Source: a virus
Virus record (IMG/VR): IMGVR_UViG_3300034374_005666
Coordinates: 1 to 64,000 of that record
DNA: 64,000 nucleotides
Direction: 5' to 3' (one strand)
Numbering within the stretch: the first letter of the stretch is position 1; each line of letters begins with the position of its first letter. This document shows, piece after piece, positions 4,674 to 64,000 of this stretch. The position numbers and the translations under genes are program-made. The notes under the pieces are model-generated. The model was not told where the DNA came from, ran no database searches, and saw only the letters and a program-made list of their open reading frames with translations.

Positions 4674-5632
4674 TTACTATAAACAAAACATATAAATTTA
4701 CAGGTTCTGCTACAGCTACTACAGTAACTTATACATGGGAATCAGGTAATGAATGTGCAGGTGTTACTCCTTCATCAGGTACAGTTGCATCTGGACAAAC
4801 TGTAGACTTTGTATTTACATATGAAGATGAAGCATGTACATCTACAGAATTTACACTAAGCGTGTATGATGATATATGTGAAACTCCTGTAGAGCAGACT
4901 TACTCTTATGCTAATCCATGTACAGGTTTGTCAGCAGCTATCAAACAAACTACTGAAGGCAGTAATCCATTCGTATTTACAGTGCTTCCAACAGGAGGAA
5001 CTTTTCCATACAACATTCAATGGATATACAATACTGCTGTATTTCAACCAGCAAGCCAAAACTCTAATACTCCTGACAATATTCTATATCTGGAAATTAA
5101 GCCTTCAGTGACCATTTTGCCTTCTGCTGCAAAAGTTACTGCAAATATTACAGATGCTAATGGGTGTACAGTATCAGTAGAGAAAAAGCTTGATCTATGT
5201 CAGCCTACAGTAATTAATGTACTTGCTGAAGCTGTATGTATTGTACCATTTACAGTAGGAGGTATTTCAGCTACTACATTTGCAGGCGGTATTGAACTTA
5301 GTGCAAGTGAATGCTCAGGTACTACTATAGATTGGTCTACTATACAGTTAAGCTATGATACAAGCAAACTGTTTGTACAGACAAACCTGAATATTATGAC
5401 TGTCTATGCTATAGCTGGTGTAGTAGCTCAAACCTATAATATTACTTATACAGTTAAGAATAGCATAGGTGTTACTTCCACAGAAGGAGTAGTAACTGTC
5501 AGTGTACCTGTATGTACAACTGATTCTTTATCAGGCCCATCTATGCCTACAGCAGTCAGTAAAAAGTTTGCATCTGGAGCTACATCAGGAGACACATTGG
5601 AACTTAATCTTGAAAATATAATCTCAGCATAA
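4670..5632 (+). CDS. Thr/Ser-rich Ig-like repeat virion protein
   Basis: SprB/Ig-like motifs (PTGGTFPY, ITDANGC, YTVKNSIG); ATG at 4670 in an ATGA overlap. Confidence 0.6.
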   Translation: MITINKTYKFTGSATATTVTYTWESGNECAGVTPSSGTVASGQTVDFVFTYEDEACTSTEFTLSVYDDICETPVEQTYSYANPCTGLSAAIKQTTEGSNPFVFTVLPTGGTFPYNIQWIYNTAVFQPASQNSNTPDNILYLEIKPSVTILPSAAKVTANITDANGCTVSVEKKLDLCQPTVINVLAEAVCIVPFTVGGISATTFAGGIELSASECSGTTIDWSTIQLSYDTSKLFVQTNLNIMTVYAIAGVVAQTYNITYTVKNSIGVTSTEGVVTVSVPVCTTDSLSGPSMPTAVSKKFASGATSGDTLELNLENIISA

Positions 5633-6687
5633 TGGCACTTTGTACAAATATAGATTGGTCTACTTTTACATTTATAGCTGGTTCAGGACAAACTCTTGTA
5701 TCAGCTACAGAGCTTACAGGCTTAAATGGTACTGCTACCTTTAATCAAGCTACTAAGACTATTGAGTATGAACTTGGTACTGCAAGTTGTCTTGTAGACC
5801 CTATTGCATTTCAGGTATCAGATGTAGATGGGAATGTGAGTAATATCAGTACATGGTATGTAGACACTACGCCTGTTACAGCTCCTACATTAACAGGAGA
5901 CAGTCTGACACTAGCTGCTGGAGAAATCAAGCTGCTTAATGCGGTTAGCAATGATACAGGTAACATCAATAAAGCCAGCTATGAAGTAGTTACTCAACCT
6001 ACTAAAGTATCTGTTGCTAATAATAATGATGGTACATTTAATATCATAGCCAGTGATACAGTAGAAGGTTCAGATAGTTTTACATACAGAGCAGCTACAC
6101 CCGAAGGTGTTTATGGTAGCCCAGCTACTGTAAGTTTGACTATTCAGAATGCTGGATTAGATGGAGCAGGTACTATATGTCCTGTAACAGGAATAGACTT
6201 GACTAGCTTCTTAGTTGGAGATGTTACTGCTGGTGGTACTTGGGCTGCTGATCCAGATAATTTAAGTACTCCTTCTTTAGTAGACCCTACTGATGTAGAC
6301 TTTGATGCAGTCAAGGCTGGTACATATATTTTTACTTACACAGTAGGAGATTCAGTAGCTACAATTACTCTTACACTTCCTGCTTATGGAGTTACTATAG
6401 ATTCTGTCAGTACACCTACAAGTAACCCATTAGCTGCTGCTGTTACATCTACAGTACAGTTTACTACTATTGGTGTTATATCTGCTGCTAATATTTCTAT
6501 AGAAGTAGACTTTAATAGTGGTACTGATATAGATACATACGAACCAGACACATGGAATGCAGAGACAGGTGTAGGTACAGTAGTAGTAGCATTAGATAAT
6601 GGAACAGGAGATTACGATATAACAGTTAGTGCTATTGATTCTTGTGGGACTACAGGTACAGCTACAGCTAGTACAATCACGTTATAG
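5632..6687 (+). CDS. Ig/cadherin-like repeat virion protein
   Basis: LNAVSND...GSDSFTY cadherin-like pattern; TAATG coupling. Confidence 0.6.
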   Translation: MALCTNIDWSTFTFIAGSGQTLVSATELTGLNGTATFNQATKTIEYELGTASCLVDPIAFQVSDVDGNVSNISTWYVDTTPVTAPTLTGDSLTLAAGEIKLLNAVSNDTGNINKASYEVVTQPTKVSVANNNDGTFNIIASDTVEGSDSFTYRAATPEGVYGSPATVSLTIQNAGLDGAGTICPVTGIDLTSFLVGDVTAGGTWAADPDNLSTPSLVDPTDVDFDAVKAGTYIFTYTVGDSVATITLTLPAYGVTIDSVSTPTSNPLAAAVTSTVQFTTIGVISAANISIEVDFNSGTDIDTYEPDTWNAETGVGTVVVALDNGTGDYDITVSAIDSCGTTGTATASTITL

Positions 6688-57870: not shown

Positions 57871-59160
57871 CTAATTTTGAGACAGCAATACTCTGCTATC
57901 GTAATGTCCAACAATATTCAAGTCATGCTCTTGGATTAATTCTCCACGCATGCCTTTTTCTTTCTTTAACTTATCAAACCATTTTTCTTCAAGAGTACCT
58001 TGGGTGACTATAAAGTACAGATTAGCTACACCTTCAACCCATCTGATTCTAGCTCTACGTTGTTCCATATTATGCCACTTAGAGCTATAGCTGAAGAAGA
58101 TAATATTCTGCACTCCTTCCAATGTAATACCTTGTTTAAGCATTTTACTGGAAGCAATAACAGGTTCTTCTCCACTATTGAATTTTTCAATCAACTCTAG
58201 CGCATTATCTGATCTGACTACAGGGCATATATTCTCTAGTATATCAAGACGTTCACCAAATATGAGTGTCTTACCAGATAGTGTACTCAGTAAAGCTTTT
58301 GTTGTAGCTACTTTGGACTTCAGATTGTACAGAAAGGTAGTTAATTCTCTACCAATAGCCATCTTAAGATACTTTGGTTTACGAAAATCCTTTCTGAAGT
58401 TATCTTTCTTTAGATAATACTCTTGCTCTGTACCTAATGTATCATAGCTCTTCCATATCTTGATTGATCTGTCTTGAGTATCCAGATGGTGATTGATTAT
58501 CCAAGTTTGATACTTAGCAATCATACCTTCTTCAATAGCCTGTTTAGTCTCTACTTTGTATACTACAGGAATATACATAGATAGCAATTGCCCCTTACTA
58601 ATAAACTCTGTAATCTCTCCTCTTTTAGTTTCTGCATCTGTCTGATAAATTGTAAGAAGGTCAGCATTATCCTGTATGTCTTGAGGATATACGTGCTGGT
58701 CTAAAGACATAGCTCCAGTCAATGCAACAACATGCTTACACTTGTTGTTTATTATATTCTCACTATACTTAGCTGACAAGCCATCTTGAATTTCATCTGC
58801 TACCAGTAAACCTATGTTTTCAAAGTTATTAAACTCTTCCACAGGCATAGCTTGATAGCATCTGAACTGAATGTTAAAATCAGCTACAGGGTCTTTATCA
58901 AACAGGCTTTTAAACTTAGGTATTTCATCTTCAAACAATGTCTTTTCACGTACTATAGTCTCTGCCAGAAATACAATAGTATCTCCTTTATTGATCTTTC
59001 CATCTTCCAGCAATCTATATGCAGCCTTCAGGGAAGCTATAGTTTTACCAGCACCAGGAAACAGCATCCATGTACCTACATAGTTATTTTGTACCCAAGC
59101 TTCTACAGCTTGGTCTTGATGGTAATTCAGTCTTTCTATATTTCTTTTCATAGTCTGCAT
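57871..59160 (-). CDS. superfamily 2 helicase
   Basis: Q motif, PGAGKT, DEIQ, LTG, QGI and QRRAR. Confidence 0.85.
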   Translation of the reverse strand: MQTMKRNIERLNYHQDQAVEAWVQNNYVGTWMLFPGAGKTIASLKAAYRLLEDGKINKGDTIVFLAETIVREKTLFEDEIPKFKSLFDKDPVADFNIQFRCYQAMPVEEFNNFENIGLLVADEIQDGLSAKYSENIINNKCKHVVALTGAMSLDQHVYPQDIQDNADLLTIYQTDAETKRGEITEFISKGQLLSMYIPVVYKVETKQAIEEGMIAKYQTWIINHHLDTQDRSIKIWKSYDTLGTEQEYYLKKDNFRKDFRKPKYLKMAIGRELTTFLYNLKSKVATTKALLSTLSGKTLIFGERLDILENICPVVRSDNALELIEKFNSGEEPVIASSKMLKQGITLEGVQNIIFFSYSSKWHNMEQRRARIRWVEGVANLYFIVTQGTLEEKWFDKLKKEKGMRGELIQEHDLNIVGHYDSRVLLSQN

Positions 59161-59285
59161 ATTATTCTGTTGCTTAAAGTTAAATCAATTGCTCTATCTG
59201 GAATAGAGTATGCTGTTCTATTGTAATACTTGTATTCATATCTAAATAAAGGATAAAAGAAACAGTAATATTTTAGATATAACAT
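59148..59285 (-). CDS. array micro-ORF A (45 aa)
   Basis: MLYLKYYCFFYPLFRYEYKYYNRTAYSIPDRAIDLTLSNRIICRL*. Confidence 0.75.
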   Translation of the reverse strand: MLYLKYYCFFYPLFRYEYKYYNRTAYSIPDRAIDLTLSNRIICRL

Positions 59286-59404
59286 AGTATTCTGTTTGAA
59301 ATTCTTCTGGCTCGAAAGCCAGCTCTTGTCCACCCAGCAGCATTAAAATGAAATAAATCTATATAGCTTGCTTTTTTGTAAAGTTTAGTCTTTATAAGTA
59401 GCAT
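59273..59404 (-). CDS. array micro-ORF B (43 aa)
   Basis: MLLIKTKLYKKASYIDLFHFNAAGWTRAGFRARRISNRILCYI*. Confidence 0.75.
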   Translation of the reverse strand: MLLIKTKLYKKASYIDLFHFNAAGWTRAGFRARRISNRILCYI

Positions 59405-59535
59405 AGTATTCTATTTGATAAAGCATCAAGACCTGATATATCCCACTCATAAACTTTAACCCAATCTTCTGGTTCTTCCCTATAACGGTTAGCCCATACT
59501 AACCTAGTACCATAAATCATATTTATACAAAACAT
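59392..59535 (-). CDS. array micro-ORF C (47 aa)
   Basis: MFCINMIYGTRLVWANRYREEPEDWVKVYEWDISGLDALSNRILCYL*. Confidence 0.75.
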   Translation of the reverse strand: MFCINMIYGTRLVWANRYREEPEDWVKVYEWDISGLDALSNRILCYL

Positions 59536-59663
59536 ACTATTCTATTTGATGCAAACTGATAGTTTACTTGGCTCCAATGTTTGACACAAGTAATTGTGTG
59601 GTCTAGATAAACTGATGACCATCTAAAATTATAACTATCATAAAGTTTATTTAACAGTAACAT
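59523..59663 (-). CDS. array micro-ORF D (46 aa)
   Basis: MLLLNKLYDSYNFRWSSVYLDHTITCVKHWSQVNYQFASNRIVCFV*. Confidence 0.75.
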   Translation of the reverse strand: MLLLNKLYDSYNFRWSSVYLDHTITCVKHWSQVNYQFASNRIVCFV

Positions 59664-59800
59664 ACTATTCTTATTGTGTTGTCTGAAGGTGGTATGAATC
59701 TACTGTAGTAAGGGTCTTCCCGTTCTTCATGGTAAAACACAGATCTGTAGTTACTATGACAGTAAAAAGTTATTGCTGTAACTATTTCTATATTACACAT
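59651..59800 (-). CDS. array micro-ORF E (49 aa)
   Basis: MCNIEIVTAITFYCHSNYRSVFYHEEREDPYYSRFIPPSDNTIRIVCYC*. Confidence 0.75.
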   Translation of the reverse strand: MCNIEIVTAITFYCHSNYRSVFYHEEREDPYYSRFIPPSDNTIRIVCYC

Positions 59801-59925
59801 AATATTCTATTTGTAATAAACCAAGCTCCTGCATGGCTATAAAAATCATGGAAATCCCATCCTGGTTCAAATGACCAGTCATATACGTGCTCACCATATA
59901 AAGCAGAGTGATTTAAAATATACAT
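59788..59925 (-). CDS. array micro-ORF F (45 aa)
   Basis: MYILNHSALYGEHVYDWSFEPGWDFHDFYSHAGAWFITNRILCVI*. Confidence 0.75.
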   Translation of the reverse strand: MYILNHSALYGEHVYDWSFEPGWDFHDFYSHAGAWFITNRILCVI

Positions 59926-60053
59926 ATTATTCTATTTGTAAATCCGTTATCGTGATATTCCATTATACTTAATATTGCTACATACCTATACGTAGTCCAG
60001 TAATAATGATCTAATACTATAAATCCATATGTTGTGTAACTTATATGTAGCAT
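59913..60053 (-). CDS. array micro-ORF G (46 aa)
   Basis: MLHISYTTYGFIVLDHYYWTTYRYVAILSIMEYHDNGFTNRIICIF*. Confidence 0.75.
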   Translation of the reverse strand: MLHISYTTYGFIVLDHYYWTTYRYVAILSIMEYHDNGFTNRIICIF

Positions 60054-60181
60054 ACTGTTTTGAATGTTTGTACTCTGTTTAATCTTCTAATAAACCAAAG
60101 AATCAGCCTATATTTAAAAGAAAACCTTGTTTTATGTATATAGTTAACTCCTTTAGGACTAACTATCATTATACGTAGCAT
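60041..60181 (-). CDS. array micro-ORF H (46 aa)
   Basis: MLRIMIVSPKGVNYIHKTRFSFKYRLILWFIRRLNRVQTFKTVCYI*. Confidence 0.7.
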   Translation of the reverse strand: MLRIMIVSPKGVNYIHKTRFSFKYRLILWFIRRLNRVQTFKTVCYI

Positions 60182-60291
60182 ACTGGCCTAATTGTGTCTA
60201 TTCTTATAAATAAAGTAATTGGAAACCATCTATTAGAAAAAGAACACTCAAAGTTATAGTTCAAGCATTGTTTAAATCCTAGTTTTCGCAT
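60169..60291 (-). CDS. array micro-ORF I (40 aa)
   Basis: MRKLGFKQCLNYNFECSFSNRWFPITLFIRIDTIRPVCYV*. Confidence 0.65.
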   Translation of the reverse strand: MRKLGFKQCLNYNFECSFSNRWFPITLFIRIDTIRPVCYV

Positions 60292-60323
60292 GTGCGTATA
60301 TTGTTTATATTATTCTGAATACC

Positions 60324-60331
60324 TATGTTTG
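60324..60331 (+). promoter_or_regulatory. Bacteroidetes -7 promoter element for the inverted phosphoesterase
   Basis: TATGTTTG ending 18 nt before the ATG at 60350. Confidence 0.5.
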
Positions 60332-60349
60332 TTGTAAACAGAATAACTT

Positions 60350-61165
60350 ATGCAGATCAATAAGATTAATGATCTATACATGGAAATACGTATTCCATAC
60401 AGATCAATGAGGACTTCTTCCTATTTTCATTTATGCTCAGATGTTCACTTCGATAATCCAGACTCAGACCAAAAGCTCTTCTTTAGCCATCTGGACAAGA
60501 TTAAAAGCCTTAATGGTAAAAGCTTAATCTTTGGTGATTTCCTCTGTTTAATGCAGGGAAAATACGACCTGCGTAGTGATAAATCTAAGATCAGACCAGA
60601 GCATAACAAGAGCAATTATCTTGATGCTGTACTTGACGATACGGCGGATAAACTCAAACCTTACAAAAAGACTTTGGGTATGATTAGCTTAGGTAATCAC
60701 GAAAGCCGCGTTATTGAAAGAAATGAAATTGATCCATTGCATAACTTAGCATTACGTCTCAAAGGACTAAATACTATGGGTTATCATGGATTTATAAAGT
60801 TTATCTTTCACAACAATGGTTCTAAAGTAAGGTCATGTCTTCTCTATTTCCATCATGGTAAATGGGGCAGTATAACCAGTTCAGTTAATAAACATGGACT
60901 TTCTGTACCACAAGCAGATATTATTGTCTCAGGTCACACACATTCTGAATTTTATGTACCTGTACCTAGATTAAATCTGCGACAAAATGGTGAAGTAAGT
61001 ATTACTAAACAGCATCACATTAAGTGTGGTACTTATAAAGATGAGTTTTTGACTACTAAAGGTTTTGGAGTAGAAAGAATAGCTGTACCTAAGAATATAG
61101 GTTCATGGCTACTCAAGCTTACACCTACAGAAAAAGATGTAGATATTAAGTTTGAGTCTATGTAA
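60350..61165 (+). CDS. calcineurin-like metallophosphoesterase
   Basis: SDVH, GD, GNHE, HHG and GHTH motifs. Confidence 0.9.
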   Translation: MQINKINDLYMEIRIPYRSMRTSSYFHLCSDVHFDNPDSDQKLFFSHLDKIKSLNGKSLIFGDFLCLMQGKYDLRSDKSKIRPEHNKSNYLDAVLDDTADKLKPYKKTLGMISLGNHESRVIERNEIDPLHNLALRLKGLNTMGYHGFIKFIFHNNGSKVRSCLLYFHHGKWGSITSSVNKHGLSVPQADIIVSGHTHSEFYVPVPRLNLRQNGEVSITKQHHIKCGTYKDEFLTTKGFGVERIAVPKNIGSWLLKLTPTEKDVDIKFESM

Positions 61166-61304
61166 TGCAGATTATTCTATTTGTTAACCAATAAGACCTT
61201 TCTAAGAAATTATCATGGTAAGGCCATTTGTTCCAATCAGCTAATTCAGCTTCAAAATCTTCATGGTTGTAGTAAAGAAATAAACATTCATTTACATGTA
61301 ACAT
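61158..61304 (-). CDS. array micro-ORF J (48 aa)
   Basis: MLHVNECLFLYYNHEDFEAELADWNKWPYHDNFLERSYWLTNRIICIT*. Confidence 0.75.
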   Translation of the reverse strand: MLHVNECLFLYYNHEDFEAELADWNKWPYHDNFLERSYWLTNRIICIT

Positions 61305-61438
61305 ATCATTCTCATTGTAGTATTGCTGTTAAGCACAGCATGTATAATCTTACGACTTTCTAGTATTGCATCTATTCCCTCAAACAAATTATCAAAAGTT
61401 TCAAACAGAATAAATCTAAAACAATTTATAGTATGCAT
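61292..61438 (-). CDS. array micro-ORF K (48 aa)
   Basis: MHTINCFRFILFETFDNLFEGIDAILESRKIIHAVLNSNTTMRMICYM*. Confidence 0.7.
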   Translation of the reverse strand: MHTINCFRFILFETFDNLFEGIDAILESRKIIHAVLNSNTTMRMICYM

Positions 61439-61560
61439 ATAGTACGTATTGTAGTGTCTGTATATCCAAAGTTTCCACCATAAACAAAAGAGTATTTAAA
61501 TAAATTACCCATTGACAAATAGCATGTGTATGCTTTAATACAATTGAGTAGTTTTATCAT
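61426..61560 (-). CDS. array micro-ORF L (44 aa)
   Basis: MIKLLNCIKAYTCYLSMGNLFKYSFVYGGNFGYTDTTIRTICIL*. Confidence 0.7.
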   Translation of the reverse strand: MIKLLNCIKAYTCYLSMGNLFKYSFVYGGNFGYTDTTIRTICIL

Positions 61561-61724
61561 ACTTCAAACGTTTTATTCCACACATACACTAGTATGTGAT
61601 AGAATCCATCATTCTTAGCTACTATATAGTAACCTTTCATATCTGTAACTAATCTTTCTAATTCAATCTCAAGCATATATGCAGGTATAACTGCAATATA
61701 TGCACCATTCAAGTCTTCCAGCAT
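61557..61724 (-). CDS. 55-aa non-family ORF inside the array
   Basis: MLEDLNGAYIAVIPAYMLEIELERLVTDMKGYYIVAKNDGFYHILVYVWNKTFEV*; ATGA overlap with L; no CxX* end. Confidence 0.55.
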   Translation of the reverse strand: MLEDLNGAYIAVIPAYMLEIELERLVTDMKGYYIVAKNDGFYHILVYVWNKTFEV

Positions 61725-61734
61725 TTGTTTACTA

Positions 61735-61863
61735 TTATAAGTGACATAATATTCTTATTGATTGGTCATCTATTCTCATTGCCATTACCCAATGATTATT
61801 GCTGTATTCAAAATTATAAGATGGAAATTTTGGATAGCTTATAAGCCGTTTTATACATAGCAT
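61735..61863 (-). CDS. array micro-ORF N (42 aa)
   Basis: MLCIKRLISYPKFPSYNFEYSNNHWVMAMRIDDQSIRILCHL*. Confidence 0.75.
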   Translation of the reverse strand: MLCIKRLISYPKFPSYNFEYSNNHWVMAMRIDDQSIRILCHL

Positions 61864-61982
61864 AATATTCTGTTTGATTTGTCTCGTATTTCTAAAGAAG
61901 TATTTATAAAAACATTATCTTCATACCATTTATAACTGTATGAGTCATATACTTTTGTTATACATTTTATTATAGTTGACAT
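61851..61982 (-). CDS. array micro-ORF O (43 aa)
   Basis: MSTIIKCITKVYDSYSYKWYEDNVFINTSLEIRDKSNRILCYV*. Confidence 0.75.
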   Translation of the reverse strand: MSTIIKCITKVYDSYSYKWYEDNVFINTSLEIRDKSNRILCYV

Positions 61983-62089
61983 ATTATTCTATAGTTTGTG
62001 TATCTTTGTCTCAAGTATTTAAGTGCAAAAGACTGGAATTTAAAATTGAGTAAGTAATGACGAGTACCTTTTGCTATAAATGACAGCAT
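61970..62089 (-). CDS. array micro-ORF P (39 aa)
   Basis: MLSFIAKGTRHYLLNFKFQSFALKYLRQRYTNYRIICQL*. Confidence 0.75.
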   Translation of the reverse strand: MLSFIAKGTRHYLLNFKFQSFALKYLRQRYTNYRIICQL

Positions 62090-62214
62090 ATTCTTAATGA
62101 TTCATCTAAACTAAAGTGAAGAAATACACCAAACTTTTGATCTAATAAAATCTCTTTATGAGAGTATGTTATCCAAAGTCTTGTATAGGTTAAAAAAGTC
62201 TTTATATGTAGCAT
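62074..62214 (-). CDS. array micro-ORF Q (46 aa)
   Basis: MLHIKTFLTYTRLWITYSHKEILLDQKFGVFLHFSLDESLRICCHL*. Confidence 0.75.
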   Translation of the reverse strand: MLHIKTFLTYTRLWITYSHKEILLDQKFGVFLHFSLDESLRICCHL

Positions 62215-62339
62215 ATAACTCTATTTGTGCTGCTAAGAAAGCTTACATACTTGTTCTTATCTATATTGGTAAAGAAACGTGCATTAAAGCTAATCAACTG
62301 TTTGTTTATAAATGACTCATAAAAAATAATTCTTAACAT
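62202..62339 (-). CDS. array micro-ORF R (45 aa; first in transcription order)
   Basis: MLRIIFYESFINKQLISFNARFFTNIDKNKYVSFLSSTNRVICYI*. Confidence 0.75.
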   Translation of the reverse strand: MLRIIFYESFINKQLISFNARFFTNIDKNKYVSFLSSTNRVICYI

Positions 62340-62349
62340 AGTTCAGCAT

Positions 62350-62390
62350 AAATTAAAGAACCCTGACATCCAATTAAGGACATCAGGGTC
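62350..62390 (-). terminator. hairpin/terminator immediately upstream of the array
   Basis: - strand CCCTGATGTCC-TTAATT-GGATGTCAGGG (two G-U pairs) followed by TTCTTTAATTT. Confidence 0.6.
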
Positions 62391-62425: not shown

Positions 62426-62710
62426 TTAGTCGTACATCTCCATGTTACGCTCAGTAAATGGGTTGTATTCCCGTGCAATGATATTCTCATGTACACCTGC
62501 TGGAACTTGTACAGCTCCATGAGGTTCACGTACTTGAGAGTGACCTTTTACAGGTACTTCATGGTTGATTACGCTGTCTACAGTAGTCTGATACAAGAAA
62601 TTGCTCAATGGAGCATCGCCTTTGATAGTGATTTTCTTCTTCACTACTGGCTGTGCTGATTTCAGTACGTGCGCATGTGTACCTTCAGCAAGAACTAATT
62701 TGTGATTCAT
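62426..62710 (-). CDS. His-rich small protein of the type that accompanies DUF6745 genes
   Basis: LAEGTHAH...INHE...H..VPAG...REYNP. Confidence 0.65.
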   Translation of the reverse strand: MNHKLVLAEGTHAHVLKSAQPVVKKKITIKGDAPLSNFLYQTTVDSVINHEVPVKGHSQVREPHGAVQVPAGVHENIIAREYNPFTERNMEMYD

Positions 62711-62734
62711 TGTTAAACTAGTTTTAATGATTTA

Positions 62735-62742
62735 CAAATATA
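62735..62742 (-). promoter_or_regulatory. Bacteroidetes -7 promoter element
   Basis: TATATTTG on the - strand upstream of 62710. Confidence 0.45.
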
Positions 62743-62753
62743 ATAAAATAATC

Positions 62754-63494
62754 TTAAGTCTGCTGATTAATGAGCTTAAAGAACTCATCTCCAGACAAAT
62801 AGTAAGGTGTGACAGGTTTTAGCTCAGAACTATCTTTAACATCGTAAGTAACTGTATAGACCTCACCTTGACGATTGATCTCTTTAATCTGCTTTTTGTC
62901 GTGTGTGATTTCACACAGCCAAGCTACTGCGTCTTTGACAGAATAGCTACCCTGCTGGCAAAAGTTTTCTCTGTCATCTACAGTTGCCCAATACTCTCTG
63001 TGAGTAGAAGGACACCAGAACTGAATAGCAAACACATCTCTACGCCTGTCTTCAAAGCCTAGTTCTTTTGGGCTGATAGACCATAAATGATATGTATCAC
63101 CTATGTTAGACTCCCTGTTATCAGGCTCAAAGTTGAAAGTATCTACTTTCTTTTTGTTCTCTATATTATTGAACATTTGAGCAGGCCCAATATAGAAGAA
63201 AGCAATACGGCGCAGGTCTATATTCTCAATATGACTGGCTGCCTTAAAGTCAATAGCTTCTACTGAAGCCCAAATATCATCTAAGAAGCTCTTTAGCTCC
63301 TCCAGTGCCTTATTGTAAGCATTAATATGCTCCATGTTAAGATTCGTACCTTTGATCTTCTTAGGCTCAAAGATGTCTGTTTCTTCTCTGTACATTTCAG
63401 CTGTAGTATCATATCTGGCTTTCATAATGCTACAGAACATATCAAACTTGATAGGCACATTGTCGATTGTAAAACTCAGTTTGCTAGGATTCAT
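62754..63494 (-). CDS. DUF6745-like protein
   Basis: ENIDLRR...CPSTHREY...DAVAW. Confidence 0.6.
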   Translation of the reverse strand: MNPSKLSFTIDNVPIKFDMFCSIMKARYDTTAEMYREETDIFEPKKIKGTNLNMEHINAYNKALEELKSFLDDIWASVEAIDFKAASHIENIDLRRIAFFYIGPAQMFNNIENKKKVDTFNFEPDNRESNIGDTYHLWSISPKELGFEDRRRDVFAIQFWCPSTHREYWATVDDRENFCQQGSYSVKDAVAWLCEITHDKKQIKEINRQGEVYTVTYDVKDSSELKPVTPYYLSGDEFFKLINQQT

Positions 63495-63498
63495 AGAC

Positions 63499-63999
63499 TT
63501 AATCTTTTTTAGTTACATACTCTACACATACTTCAAGAAAGTTACCAATCATGTCATACAGACCATATTTATTTGGCATCTTGGTTCCAGGCAGTGCAGG
63601 TTTTTGCCCACTATTACCAGGATGGACAGCTACTGCATCAAGACCATGCTCTTTAATCTGGTCTTCTGCATCTGCTTTAAGGAACTCCCACTCATCTACT
63701 GAGGGAAGTCTAAAGCCTTTCACATTAATATCTGATAGAAATACCCCATCATCATTAATGACATATGGTAATTCAGGTAATCCAAGAAAAACATTATATT
63801 CAGCAAATGTTTTGTCTGCATGTTCGTGATTAGCATCCATCTCACCTACTTTAGTAACTTCAGTAAGCCAGTTTAGATAGTGACACACGTCAATATCTCT
63901 GATATTAGCTACTGGTAGATTTCCCCTACCAAAGCCTGAATCTGACGGGAGTGTACGTCCTGTAGCAATACAGAACTTAGCCCATTGATTATGGCTAGT
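63499..63999 (-). CDS. FGE-sulfatase (SUMF1/EgtB/PvdO-like) domain protein, 5' partial
   Basis: Frame is open to the window edge: PSDSGFGRGNLPVAN...YLNWL...GFRLPSVDEWE...PNKYGLYDMIGNFLEVC. Confidence 0.8.
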   Translation of the reverse strand, partial: TSHNQWAKFCIATGRTLPSDSGFGRGNLPVANIRDIDVCHYLNWLTEVTKVGEMDANHEHADKTFAEYNVFLGLPELPYVINDDGVFLSDINVKGFRLPSVDEWEFLKADAEDQIKEHGLDAVAVHPGNSGQKPALPGTKMPNKYGLYDMIGNFLEVCVEYVTKKD

Positions 64000-64000
64000 A

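Follow-up and report, generated by a model that had tools for sequence, protein, structure and literature searches.

The virus record IMGVR_UViG_3300034374_005666 raises the question of what a phage could do with a long row of very small genes whose bodies have almost nothing in common and whose ends are nearly the same. The window analysed here is the first 64 kb (64,000 nucleotides) of this 103,255-bp record, which is 95% complete, and the mini-genes in question are 17 minus-strand open reading frames (ORFs) of 39-49 codons across positions 59148-62339. The answer that appears fairly probable is that each mini-gene would encode an alternative, separately translated C-terminal tip for one truncated scaffold protein of the C-type-lectin/FGE (formylglycine-generating enzyme) fold. 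The source phage is, judging by its genes, a divergent crAss-like virus, since its DNA polymerase (619 aa) is about 30% identical to the polymerases of crAss-like phages in GenBank and 45-50% identical to those of many IMG/VR contigs.

The 17 ORFs within the window lie exactly where the original prediction had placed them and carry the very tails that it had listed, with Cys at position -3 and Arg or Lys at -6 in 17/17 and Ser or Thr at -8 in 16/17. A further nine units just past the window, which form a third array, had gone unnoted, so that the genome contains 26 mini-genes. All 26 are paralogous ORFs of 38-52 aa. For the 17 in the window the stop-to-stop spacing is 104-137 nt, and neighbouring ORFs in a chain share 13 nt (16 nt in one case) at the junction between them. 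The arrays and the scaffold gene are arranged as follows:

59148..60291, minus strand: array C, nine chained mini-genes (from the ORF list, the junction matrix, frames kept in the relatives L227, L270 and L178, and dN/dS)
60291-60169, 60181-60041, 60053-59913, 59925-59788 and 59800-59651, minus strand: array C, units 1-5
59663-59523, 59535-59392, 59404-59273 and 59285-59148, minus strand: array C, units 6-9 (the last, unit 59148, has 45 aa if read from the junction ATG at 59285)
61158..62339, minus strand: array B, eight tagged mini-genes (from the ORF list, the junction matrix and frames kept in relatives)
62339-62202, 62214-62074, 62089-61970, 61982-61851 and 61863-61735, minus strand: array B, units 1-5
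61560-61426, 61438-61292 and 61304-61158, minus strand: array B, units 6-8
63499..64000, continuing to genome position 64140, minus strand: scaffold gene, 213 aa, FGE-sulfatase/C-type-lectin-fold domain, between the arrays
Genome 66008-67205, outside the window: third array, nine units, directly upstream of the gene of the 619-aa DNA polymerase

The mini-genes are real genes under purifying selection. A metagenome scan for three spaced junction cores gave five relatives among at least 119 stretches listed, the other matches being unrelated repeats. The relatives are L227 (97-99% identical), L270 (91%), L229 (85%, spanning the third array), L283 (99.9% identical to the third array) and L178 (97.7%, spanning the helicase side), and at these identities of 85-99% every frame is kept in all five contigs. 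When orthologous units were compared with those of L270, L229 and L227, with 5 N-terminal and 9 C-terminal codons excluded, the ratio of non-synonymous to synonymous substitution rates (dN/dS) of the bodies was 0.30 in the ORF frame, where 45 differences are synonymous and 62 non-synonymous (Fisher p 1.2e-8), as against 0.75 and 0.72 in the two other frames. The original prediction is supported in that the row is a genuine repertoire of micro-proteins, by its looks expressed, in which variable bodies share a constant handle, and searches of PHROGs and Pfam give no match that would make it an already annotated small-protein family. The bodies, rich in Tyr, Phe, Ser and Asn, are as divergent as had been claimed and cannot be aligned between paralogues, yet they have a near-invariant Tyr near residue 14 and a near-invariant Trp near residue 27, which had been overlooked. 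Tandem Repeats Finder detects no tandem repeat in the array stretch because the bodies are unalignable. The ESM Atlas gave no usable match to the units, and only one of the 26 is present as a protein in a collection of 5.8 billion proteins. As to related loci, a megablast search of GenBank phages was without result, no IMG/VR loci were retrieved with the helicase or with three short FGE-like proteins as queries, and a two-motif DNA pattern gave 85 chance matches and no arrays in IMG/VR.

The constant handle has proved to be two-ended, with an N-terminal M-L-x-I besides the C-terminal tail, and the DNA of the tail serves at the same time as the start region of the next gene. The conserved "tag" is a stretch of 27 nt of DNA read in two frames, the first of which gives the tail [ST]-[NI]-R-I-[ILV]-C-x-x-stop of unit n and the second an A-rich start region, an ATG and the M-L-x-I of unit n+1, as in the representative junction:

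59392..59418, minus strand: minus-strand consensus aCAAwnAGAATAnTATGynannTATAA; tail S-N-R-I-L-C-Y-L-stop, next start M-L-L-I

The ATG of the next gene falls within tail codons -4/-3 (nTA TGy), and the Cys codon TGy is therefore partly forced by the ATG and the pyrimidine that follows it. A weight matrix of the 27-nt junction, scanned over both strands of the 103,255-bp genome, finds 26 sites at 18.6-35.8 bits, all on one strand, and only one further site, at 12.9 bits, on either strand; the 17-mer junction core has 17 matches against 7.4 +/- 2.4 in shuffled sequences, with the good ones all within the array. The tail is also restricted in its codons, as Thr is written ACA in 16/16 cases (genome-wide share 41.5%), Ser TCA in 7/7 (34%), Ile ATA in 20/20 (41%) and Arg AGA in 23/25 (64%). 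The near-fixed third positions are those at -12, -6 and -3 relative to the next ATG, and A at -3, -6, -12 and -13 raises initiation in a Bacteroidetes species that does not use Shine-Dalgarno pairing (PMC6847099). Selection on the protein is visible in the tail together with that on the nucleotides. The Arg is kept through AGG and CGT codons or swapped for Lys, and position -8 switches between Thr and Ser. In unit 61158, which has no gene downstream, CTG stands in place of the junction ATG, a substitution that is silent in the tail frame and retains I-I-C, and the first units of the arrays, which are not overlapped by any tail, still start with M-x-x-[ILV]. A possible junction hairpin (TATG-loop-CATA) has only its two outer pairs conserved, while the inner pairs form in 15-18 of the 26 units and covariation is impossible.

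The junction was also considered as a phage promoter and rejected, as a sigma-70 scan yielded no enrichment, with 23 sites where 29.3 were expected, and the genome has the motif only in the arrays; a study of phage phi14:2 found no common motif in early virion-polymerase promoters. After the promoter idea, it was the frame-specific dN/dS that settled the units as coding. An array of non-coding regulatory repeats, whether promoters or iterons, with merely incidental open frames would suit a junction that is conserved as DNA with third codon positions included, but it is contradicted by frame-specific purifying selection in two phage clades, the second of which is described below. All 26 frames are moreover open and kept in diverged relatives, and the promoter scan falls below expectation, which leaves such an array hardly any probability.

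Ends resembling the tail were encountered in other sequences as well. Two rumen-type metagenome contigs with a GC content of 0.21, L183 and L221, contain in-frame 48-nt repeats in which I-I-R-I-I-C-K/Q-x-L occurs many times; they match the junction matrix but are unrelated low-GC repeat proteins. L201 has 34/68-nt repeats with the end K-I-R-I-I-C-R-L-stop. Near a related polymerase, L130 has five chained small ORFs (4993-5861, plus strand), several with tails K-Q-D or K-Q-I-I, which may be another tail similarity driven by the start region.

The scaffold belongs to the FGE-sulfatase/C-type-lectin fold by both profile score and fold similarity. It matches Pfam PF03781 with 37.5 bits (cut-off 23.3; E 2.7e-9), or 38.4 bits in a six-frame search of the genome, in which it is the only FGE-type gene, and the match covers profile positions 61-191 of 255 only. 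The protein stops 8 residues past the motif G-N-F-L-E-V-C, with the last ~64 profile positions missing, and it is not a complete domain, as the whole C-terminal third with the RVxRGGSW...GFR strands is absent. The catalytic Cys pair of FGE enzymes is known to lie in that missing part. The best sequence match in the PDB is Treponema denticola TvpA (2Y3C; E 2.1e-8), a variable protein of a diversity-generating retroelement (DGR), and it ends at chain residue 232 of 294. An AlphaFold2 (AF2) model of the scaffold has a mean predicted local distance difference test score (pLDDT) of 82.8; Foldseek places 2y3c first with probability 1.00, and VIA gives CarF (5aoh_B) with Z 12.0 (root-mean-square deviation 2.6, 157 residues aligned), TvpA (2y3c) with Z 11.9 (3.0, 162 aligned) and FGE (1y1g) with Z 8.0. 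In DGR proteins of this fold only the last ~45-55 residues vary; they close with an invariant strand beta5 paired with beta1, and an invariant aromatic residue lies at the base of the site (PMC5006420). The scaffold ends just before the ~60 residues that form the ligand-facing variable region and beta5 in proteins such as TvpA. The truncation is also found elsewhere. The scaffold gene of L227 likewise encodes 213 aa, and among 1.84 billion representative proteins there are several free-standing ones of 181-212 aa that break off at this position (P0127, 51% identical, and P0131, P0157, P0194, P0236 and P0239); P0126 stops there too. A full-length FGE-like protein, P0247 (302 aa), ends in G-F-R-I-V-C-N-L, and a unit of L229 has the tail T-I-R-I-V-C-N-L, with the last six residues in common, a single case that may be due to chance.

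In structure predictions the mini-protein fills the position of the missing strands. A complex of the scaffold with one mini-protein was modelled with interface scores (ipSAE) of 0.93, 0.93 and 0.92, compared to 0.00 for all three controls; among 80 solved complexes 58 attain the mark applied to this score, as do 2 of the 110 mismatched pairs, counts that are only approximate here, where own alignments were used. The runs have at least 73% of contacts in common, with a partner pLDDT of 46-48. The confident part of the modelled interface consists of mini-protein residues 1-8 and 37-47, i.e., the two conserved ends. In the model, residues 1-8, with the M-L-x-I strand, lie against the last scaffold strand (201-209), and the tail strand T-x-R-I-I-C-Y-x is inserted between scaffold strands 40-44 and 141-146, against which tail residues 42-46 lie, with its Cys packed among Phe41, Phe42 and Phe143 of the scaffold. 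Strand 40-44 would correspond to beta1 and the tail would take the place of beta5, on a reading of the published description (PMC5006420) rather than on a superposition. Modelled alone in AF2, the mini-protein lacks secondary structure and has a pLDDT of 47.7. Among the options offered in the original prediction, docking on a common partner agrees best with the results and is in part supported, the modelled partner being the truncated FGE/C-type-lectin-fold protein.

The pairing of a truncated scaffold with a mini-gene array occurs in two distant phage clades. With P0194 as query, three IMG/VR phage contigs were found, L296, L297 and L298, whose scaffolds are 27% identical to the one described here and match the Pfam profile only as far as position 188 of 255. 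They have 17, 28+ and 17+ chained mini-genes of 31-61 aa, respectively, which follow within 0.5-1.5 kb downstream of the scaffold on the same strand. Their tail is a different one, h-h-[TILV]-L-K-[HYQFL]-[IVM], in which a basic residue again stands between hydrophobic ones and no Cys has a fixed place. The units have a dN/dS of 0.25 in frame and of 1.04 and 1.45 out of frame, and the Thr of the tail uses all four codons (ACA, ACC, ACT and ACG), which points to conservation at the protein level. Neither a scaffold nor a mini-gene array is present at any of 80 loci around related DNA polymerases.

On the proposed mechanism, the conserved ends of the mini-protein would complete the scaffold fold as strands, with assembly at the protein level, and would leave the hypervariable Tyr/Phe-rich middle exposed as a binding surface, so that one scaffold and 26 tips could give 26 binders. 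Such a repertoire would be a germline-encoded counterpart of DGR variation without a reverse transcriptase. The junction would then have a triple role as the last strand, as the start region of the next gene with A at -3, -6 and -12, and as homology for recombination, with its 27 nt allowing unequal recombination to add or delete units. The arrays belong to the replication/early module, where they lead into the genes for the helicase and the DNA polymerase, a position that suggests intracellular targets, e.g. host defence or takeover factors. The full proposal, a germline repertoire free of reverse transcriptase in which a scaffold is completed in trans by 26 tips (~30 or more elsewhere) that are re-assorted by unequal recombination and directed against variable host targets, has in our estimate about an even chance of being correct.

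Several points weigh against completion of the scaffold by the mini-proteins. First, the success of the complex model may well stem from the memory of the modelling program for complete FGE folds, in which case it would indicate a likeness to the missing piece and not binding. Binding is predicted by one model of one unit, with a partner pLDDT below 50 and the variable middle not confidently placed. Next, sequence comparison gives little: hhalign of 42 mini-proteins against 256 canonical FGE C-terminal segments yields E 0.19, which for sequences so short and diverged is no firm negative, and a hidden Markov model of RVxRGG...GFR segments shows a marginal shift over shuffled sequences when run on the mini-proteins (p 0.015). 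The conservation of the tail is partly owed to the constraint on nucleotides. Finally, the two clades have gene order in common and their co-occurrence of scaffold and array is for that reason not fully independent, and clade 2 also encodes a separate full-length FGE-sulfatase domain protein (profile 3-254, E 1e-37):

G002:C1:72048-72704 and G003:C1:90150-90809 (L297 436-1137): full-length FGE protein of clade 2, ~9 kb from the truncated scaffold; PHROGs label 'kinase'

Some of the same observations favour independent small early proteins, that is, a lineage-specific expansion of takeover or anti-defence effectors to which the truncated lectin next door is unrelated and whose conserved ends reflect common descent together with a dual-coding, translationally coupled junction. 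The early-module position of the arrays, the constraint on synonymous tail sites at -3, -6 and -12, where A raises initiation in Bacteroidetes (PMC6847099), and the lack of significant sequence similarity to FGE C-termini are all in keeping with it. Against such an expansion, the pairing of scaffold and array recurs in a clade with a 27% identical scaffold and is absent from the 80 related loci, the complex model is specific (0.93 versus 0.00) and formed by exactly the conserved ends, and a lone mini-protein is predicted to be unstructured; the expansion is regarded here as rather unlikely, though it is the main alternative.

The alternative offered in the original prediction, that a modifying or conjugating enzyme recognises the tail, is not supported: the FGE-like protein lacks the C-terminal third of its domain, no radical-SAM enzyme is encoded and the tail has no Gly-Gly end. 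In its fuller form the idea would make the mini-proteins precursors resembling ribosomally synthesized and post-translationally modified peptides (RiPPs), a prochlorosin-style library whose Cys tail is recognised or modified by a phage enzyme such as the FGE-like protein or the E1/E2/JAB cluster. The invariant Cys, the hypervariable bodies, the many paralogues and the FGE-family gene adjoining the arrays would fit this, but besides the missing C-terminal third and radical-SAM enzyme, purifying selection acts on the bodies and their Tyr and Trp are conserved, both of which would be typical of a structural element, the clade-2 tail has no fixed Cys, and the Cys of the modelled complex packs among scaffold phenylalanines. 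Precursor peptides are accordingly considered very improbable. Searches of the genome for enzymes that the better-known systems depend on came out negative: no PF00078 (reverse transcriptase) match at E <= 1 in the 103-kb genome and none in G001-G003, no PF00589 or PF00239 (tyrosine or serine recombinase) match in the genome, and no radical-SAM match in the genome and no neighbouring gene of a modifying-enzyme family, the lanthipeptide and YcaO families not having been searched. The absence of a reverse transcriptase, recombinase and radical-SAM enzyme argues against DGR, shufflon and modified-peptide readings, respectively.

Between strains, the unit content differs by whole units only, cut at the junction, as emerged from the comparison of close relatives that the original prediction had called for. 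The genome lacks one unit of L227, L227 lacks two units found here, and L270 has three units that are absent here. Among the point differences between strains 70% are transitions and there is no adenine bias, A being involved in 53% and T in 57%. Gain and loss exactly at 27-nt repeats, together with one constant scaffold and many alternative C-terminal pieces, might also be expected of silent DNA cassettes recombined onto the 3' end of the scaffold gene to give a contiguous full-length lectin, in the style of shufflons, the Mu G segment or pilE/pilS. However, the junction motif is missing at that end of the gene, direct repeats are found in place of inverted ones, the genome encodes neither a tyrosine nor a serine recombinase, each unit starts with an ATG of its own in a favourable context, and the scaffold gene stays at 213 aa in the relative examined (L227), all of which makes silent cassettes highly improbable, even slightly more so than precursor peptides.

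Completion of a scaffold by separate tips would have partial counterparts in several known systems. The scaffold has the same fold as DGR variable proteins such as TvpA (PDB 2Y3C) and Mtd of Bordetella phage, and the mini-proteins match the variable segment in size, in an invariant last strand and in the near-invariant Tyr and Trp. In contrast to a DGR, a reverse transcriptase is missing from the phage genome, a template repeat was not observed, the mutation spectrum between strains is not biased towards adenine, and the tips have no detectable sequence similarity to RGGSW...GFR segments; the variable segment would here be a separate polypeptide from 26 germline genes and not one mutagenised region. 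Shufflons and invertible tail-fibre segments (R64 PilV; phage Mu G, P1 C) similarly have a constant N-terminal part and alternative C-terminal parts side by side, but they join the parts by site-specific DNA inversion, whereas here there is no recombinase, the repeats are direct, each piece has its own start codon and assembly would take place as protein.

The internal-protein locus of T-even phages is polymorphic and combines a constant capsid-targeting sequence with a variable body; this handle is N-terminal, is cleaved and targets the prohead. The likeness to the present arrays is that small phage proteins, otherwise unrelated, carry a short constant handle and come from a hyperplastic locus, while the difference is that here both ends are conserved and are modelled as strands completing the fold of another protein. 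Prochlorosin-type RiPP libraries are similar in that their many short paralogues combine a conserved part for recognition with a hypervariable rest, but the conserved parts are here just 4 and 8 residues, purifying selection acts on the aromatic-rich bodies, and no modifying enzyme turned up within the families searched. Finally, small-protein expansions in phage early regions also consist of tandem, translationally coupled small paralogues in lytic phages, and differ in that they lack the link to a truncated partner fold, the dual-coding junction and the recurrence in a distant clade.

The other features around and within the arrays are the following:

57871..59160, minus strand: superfamily 2 (SF2) helicase gene (Helicase_C, ResIII); its start codon is the ATG of the last array C junction (59160)
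60350..61165, plus strand: Metallophos phosphoesterase gene, on the opposite strand to the mini-genes, dividing arrays B and C
61724-61557, minus strand: untagged 55-aa ORF inside array B, with a Pfam E of 0.19 only and no family match
62359..62390, minus strand: terminator-like hairpin, 13 pairs and a T-rich tail, immediately upstream of array B, unit 1
62426-63494, minus strand: two genes, of 246 aa and (His-rich) 94 aa, between the scaffold gene and array B, without significant Pfam match
Genome 67255-67764, outside the window, minus strand: cell-wall-hydrolase-like gene, 169 aa (Hydrolase_2, 24.1 bits, below the cut-off of 27)

The phosphoesterase gene looks as if it had been inserted into a formerly continuous array. 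In the divergent gap just beyond its start are degenerate junction remnants (60299-60325, minus strand: AGAATAATATA), in which the ATG has become ATA, followed by a short frame ending in N-I-R-T-C-E-N-stop. A homologous gene of exonuclease type lies near the scaffold in L297. The junction ATG preceding the untagged 55-aa ORF opens a frame of 12 codons only, and this ORF overlaps the next unit by ATGA at its end. The hydrolase-like gene is directly upstream of the third array, and a similar endolysin-type gene adjoins the array in L297.

DNA annotated as empty can thus contain dozens of selected genes. The literature search found no paper linking crAss-like phages with FGE-type domains or describing a split lectin with tip cassettes. 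To our knowledge, the known routes to many specificities act on DNA or RNA, as in DGR mutagenesis, invertible segments, gene conversion and V(D)J recombination. If the proposal is true, a split lectin with a germline library of tips would obtain its diversity by joining one scaffold, as protein, to the products of a row of tiny genes, as a protein-complementation analogue of DGRs or antibody variable regions, and binder engineering would gain from it a compact split-scaffold design of natural origin. For the phages themselves, which belong to the most abundant group in the gut, it would amount to a new principle of host recognition or counter-defence.

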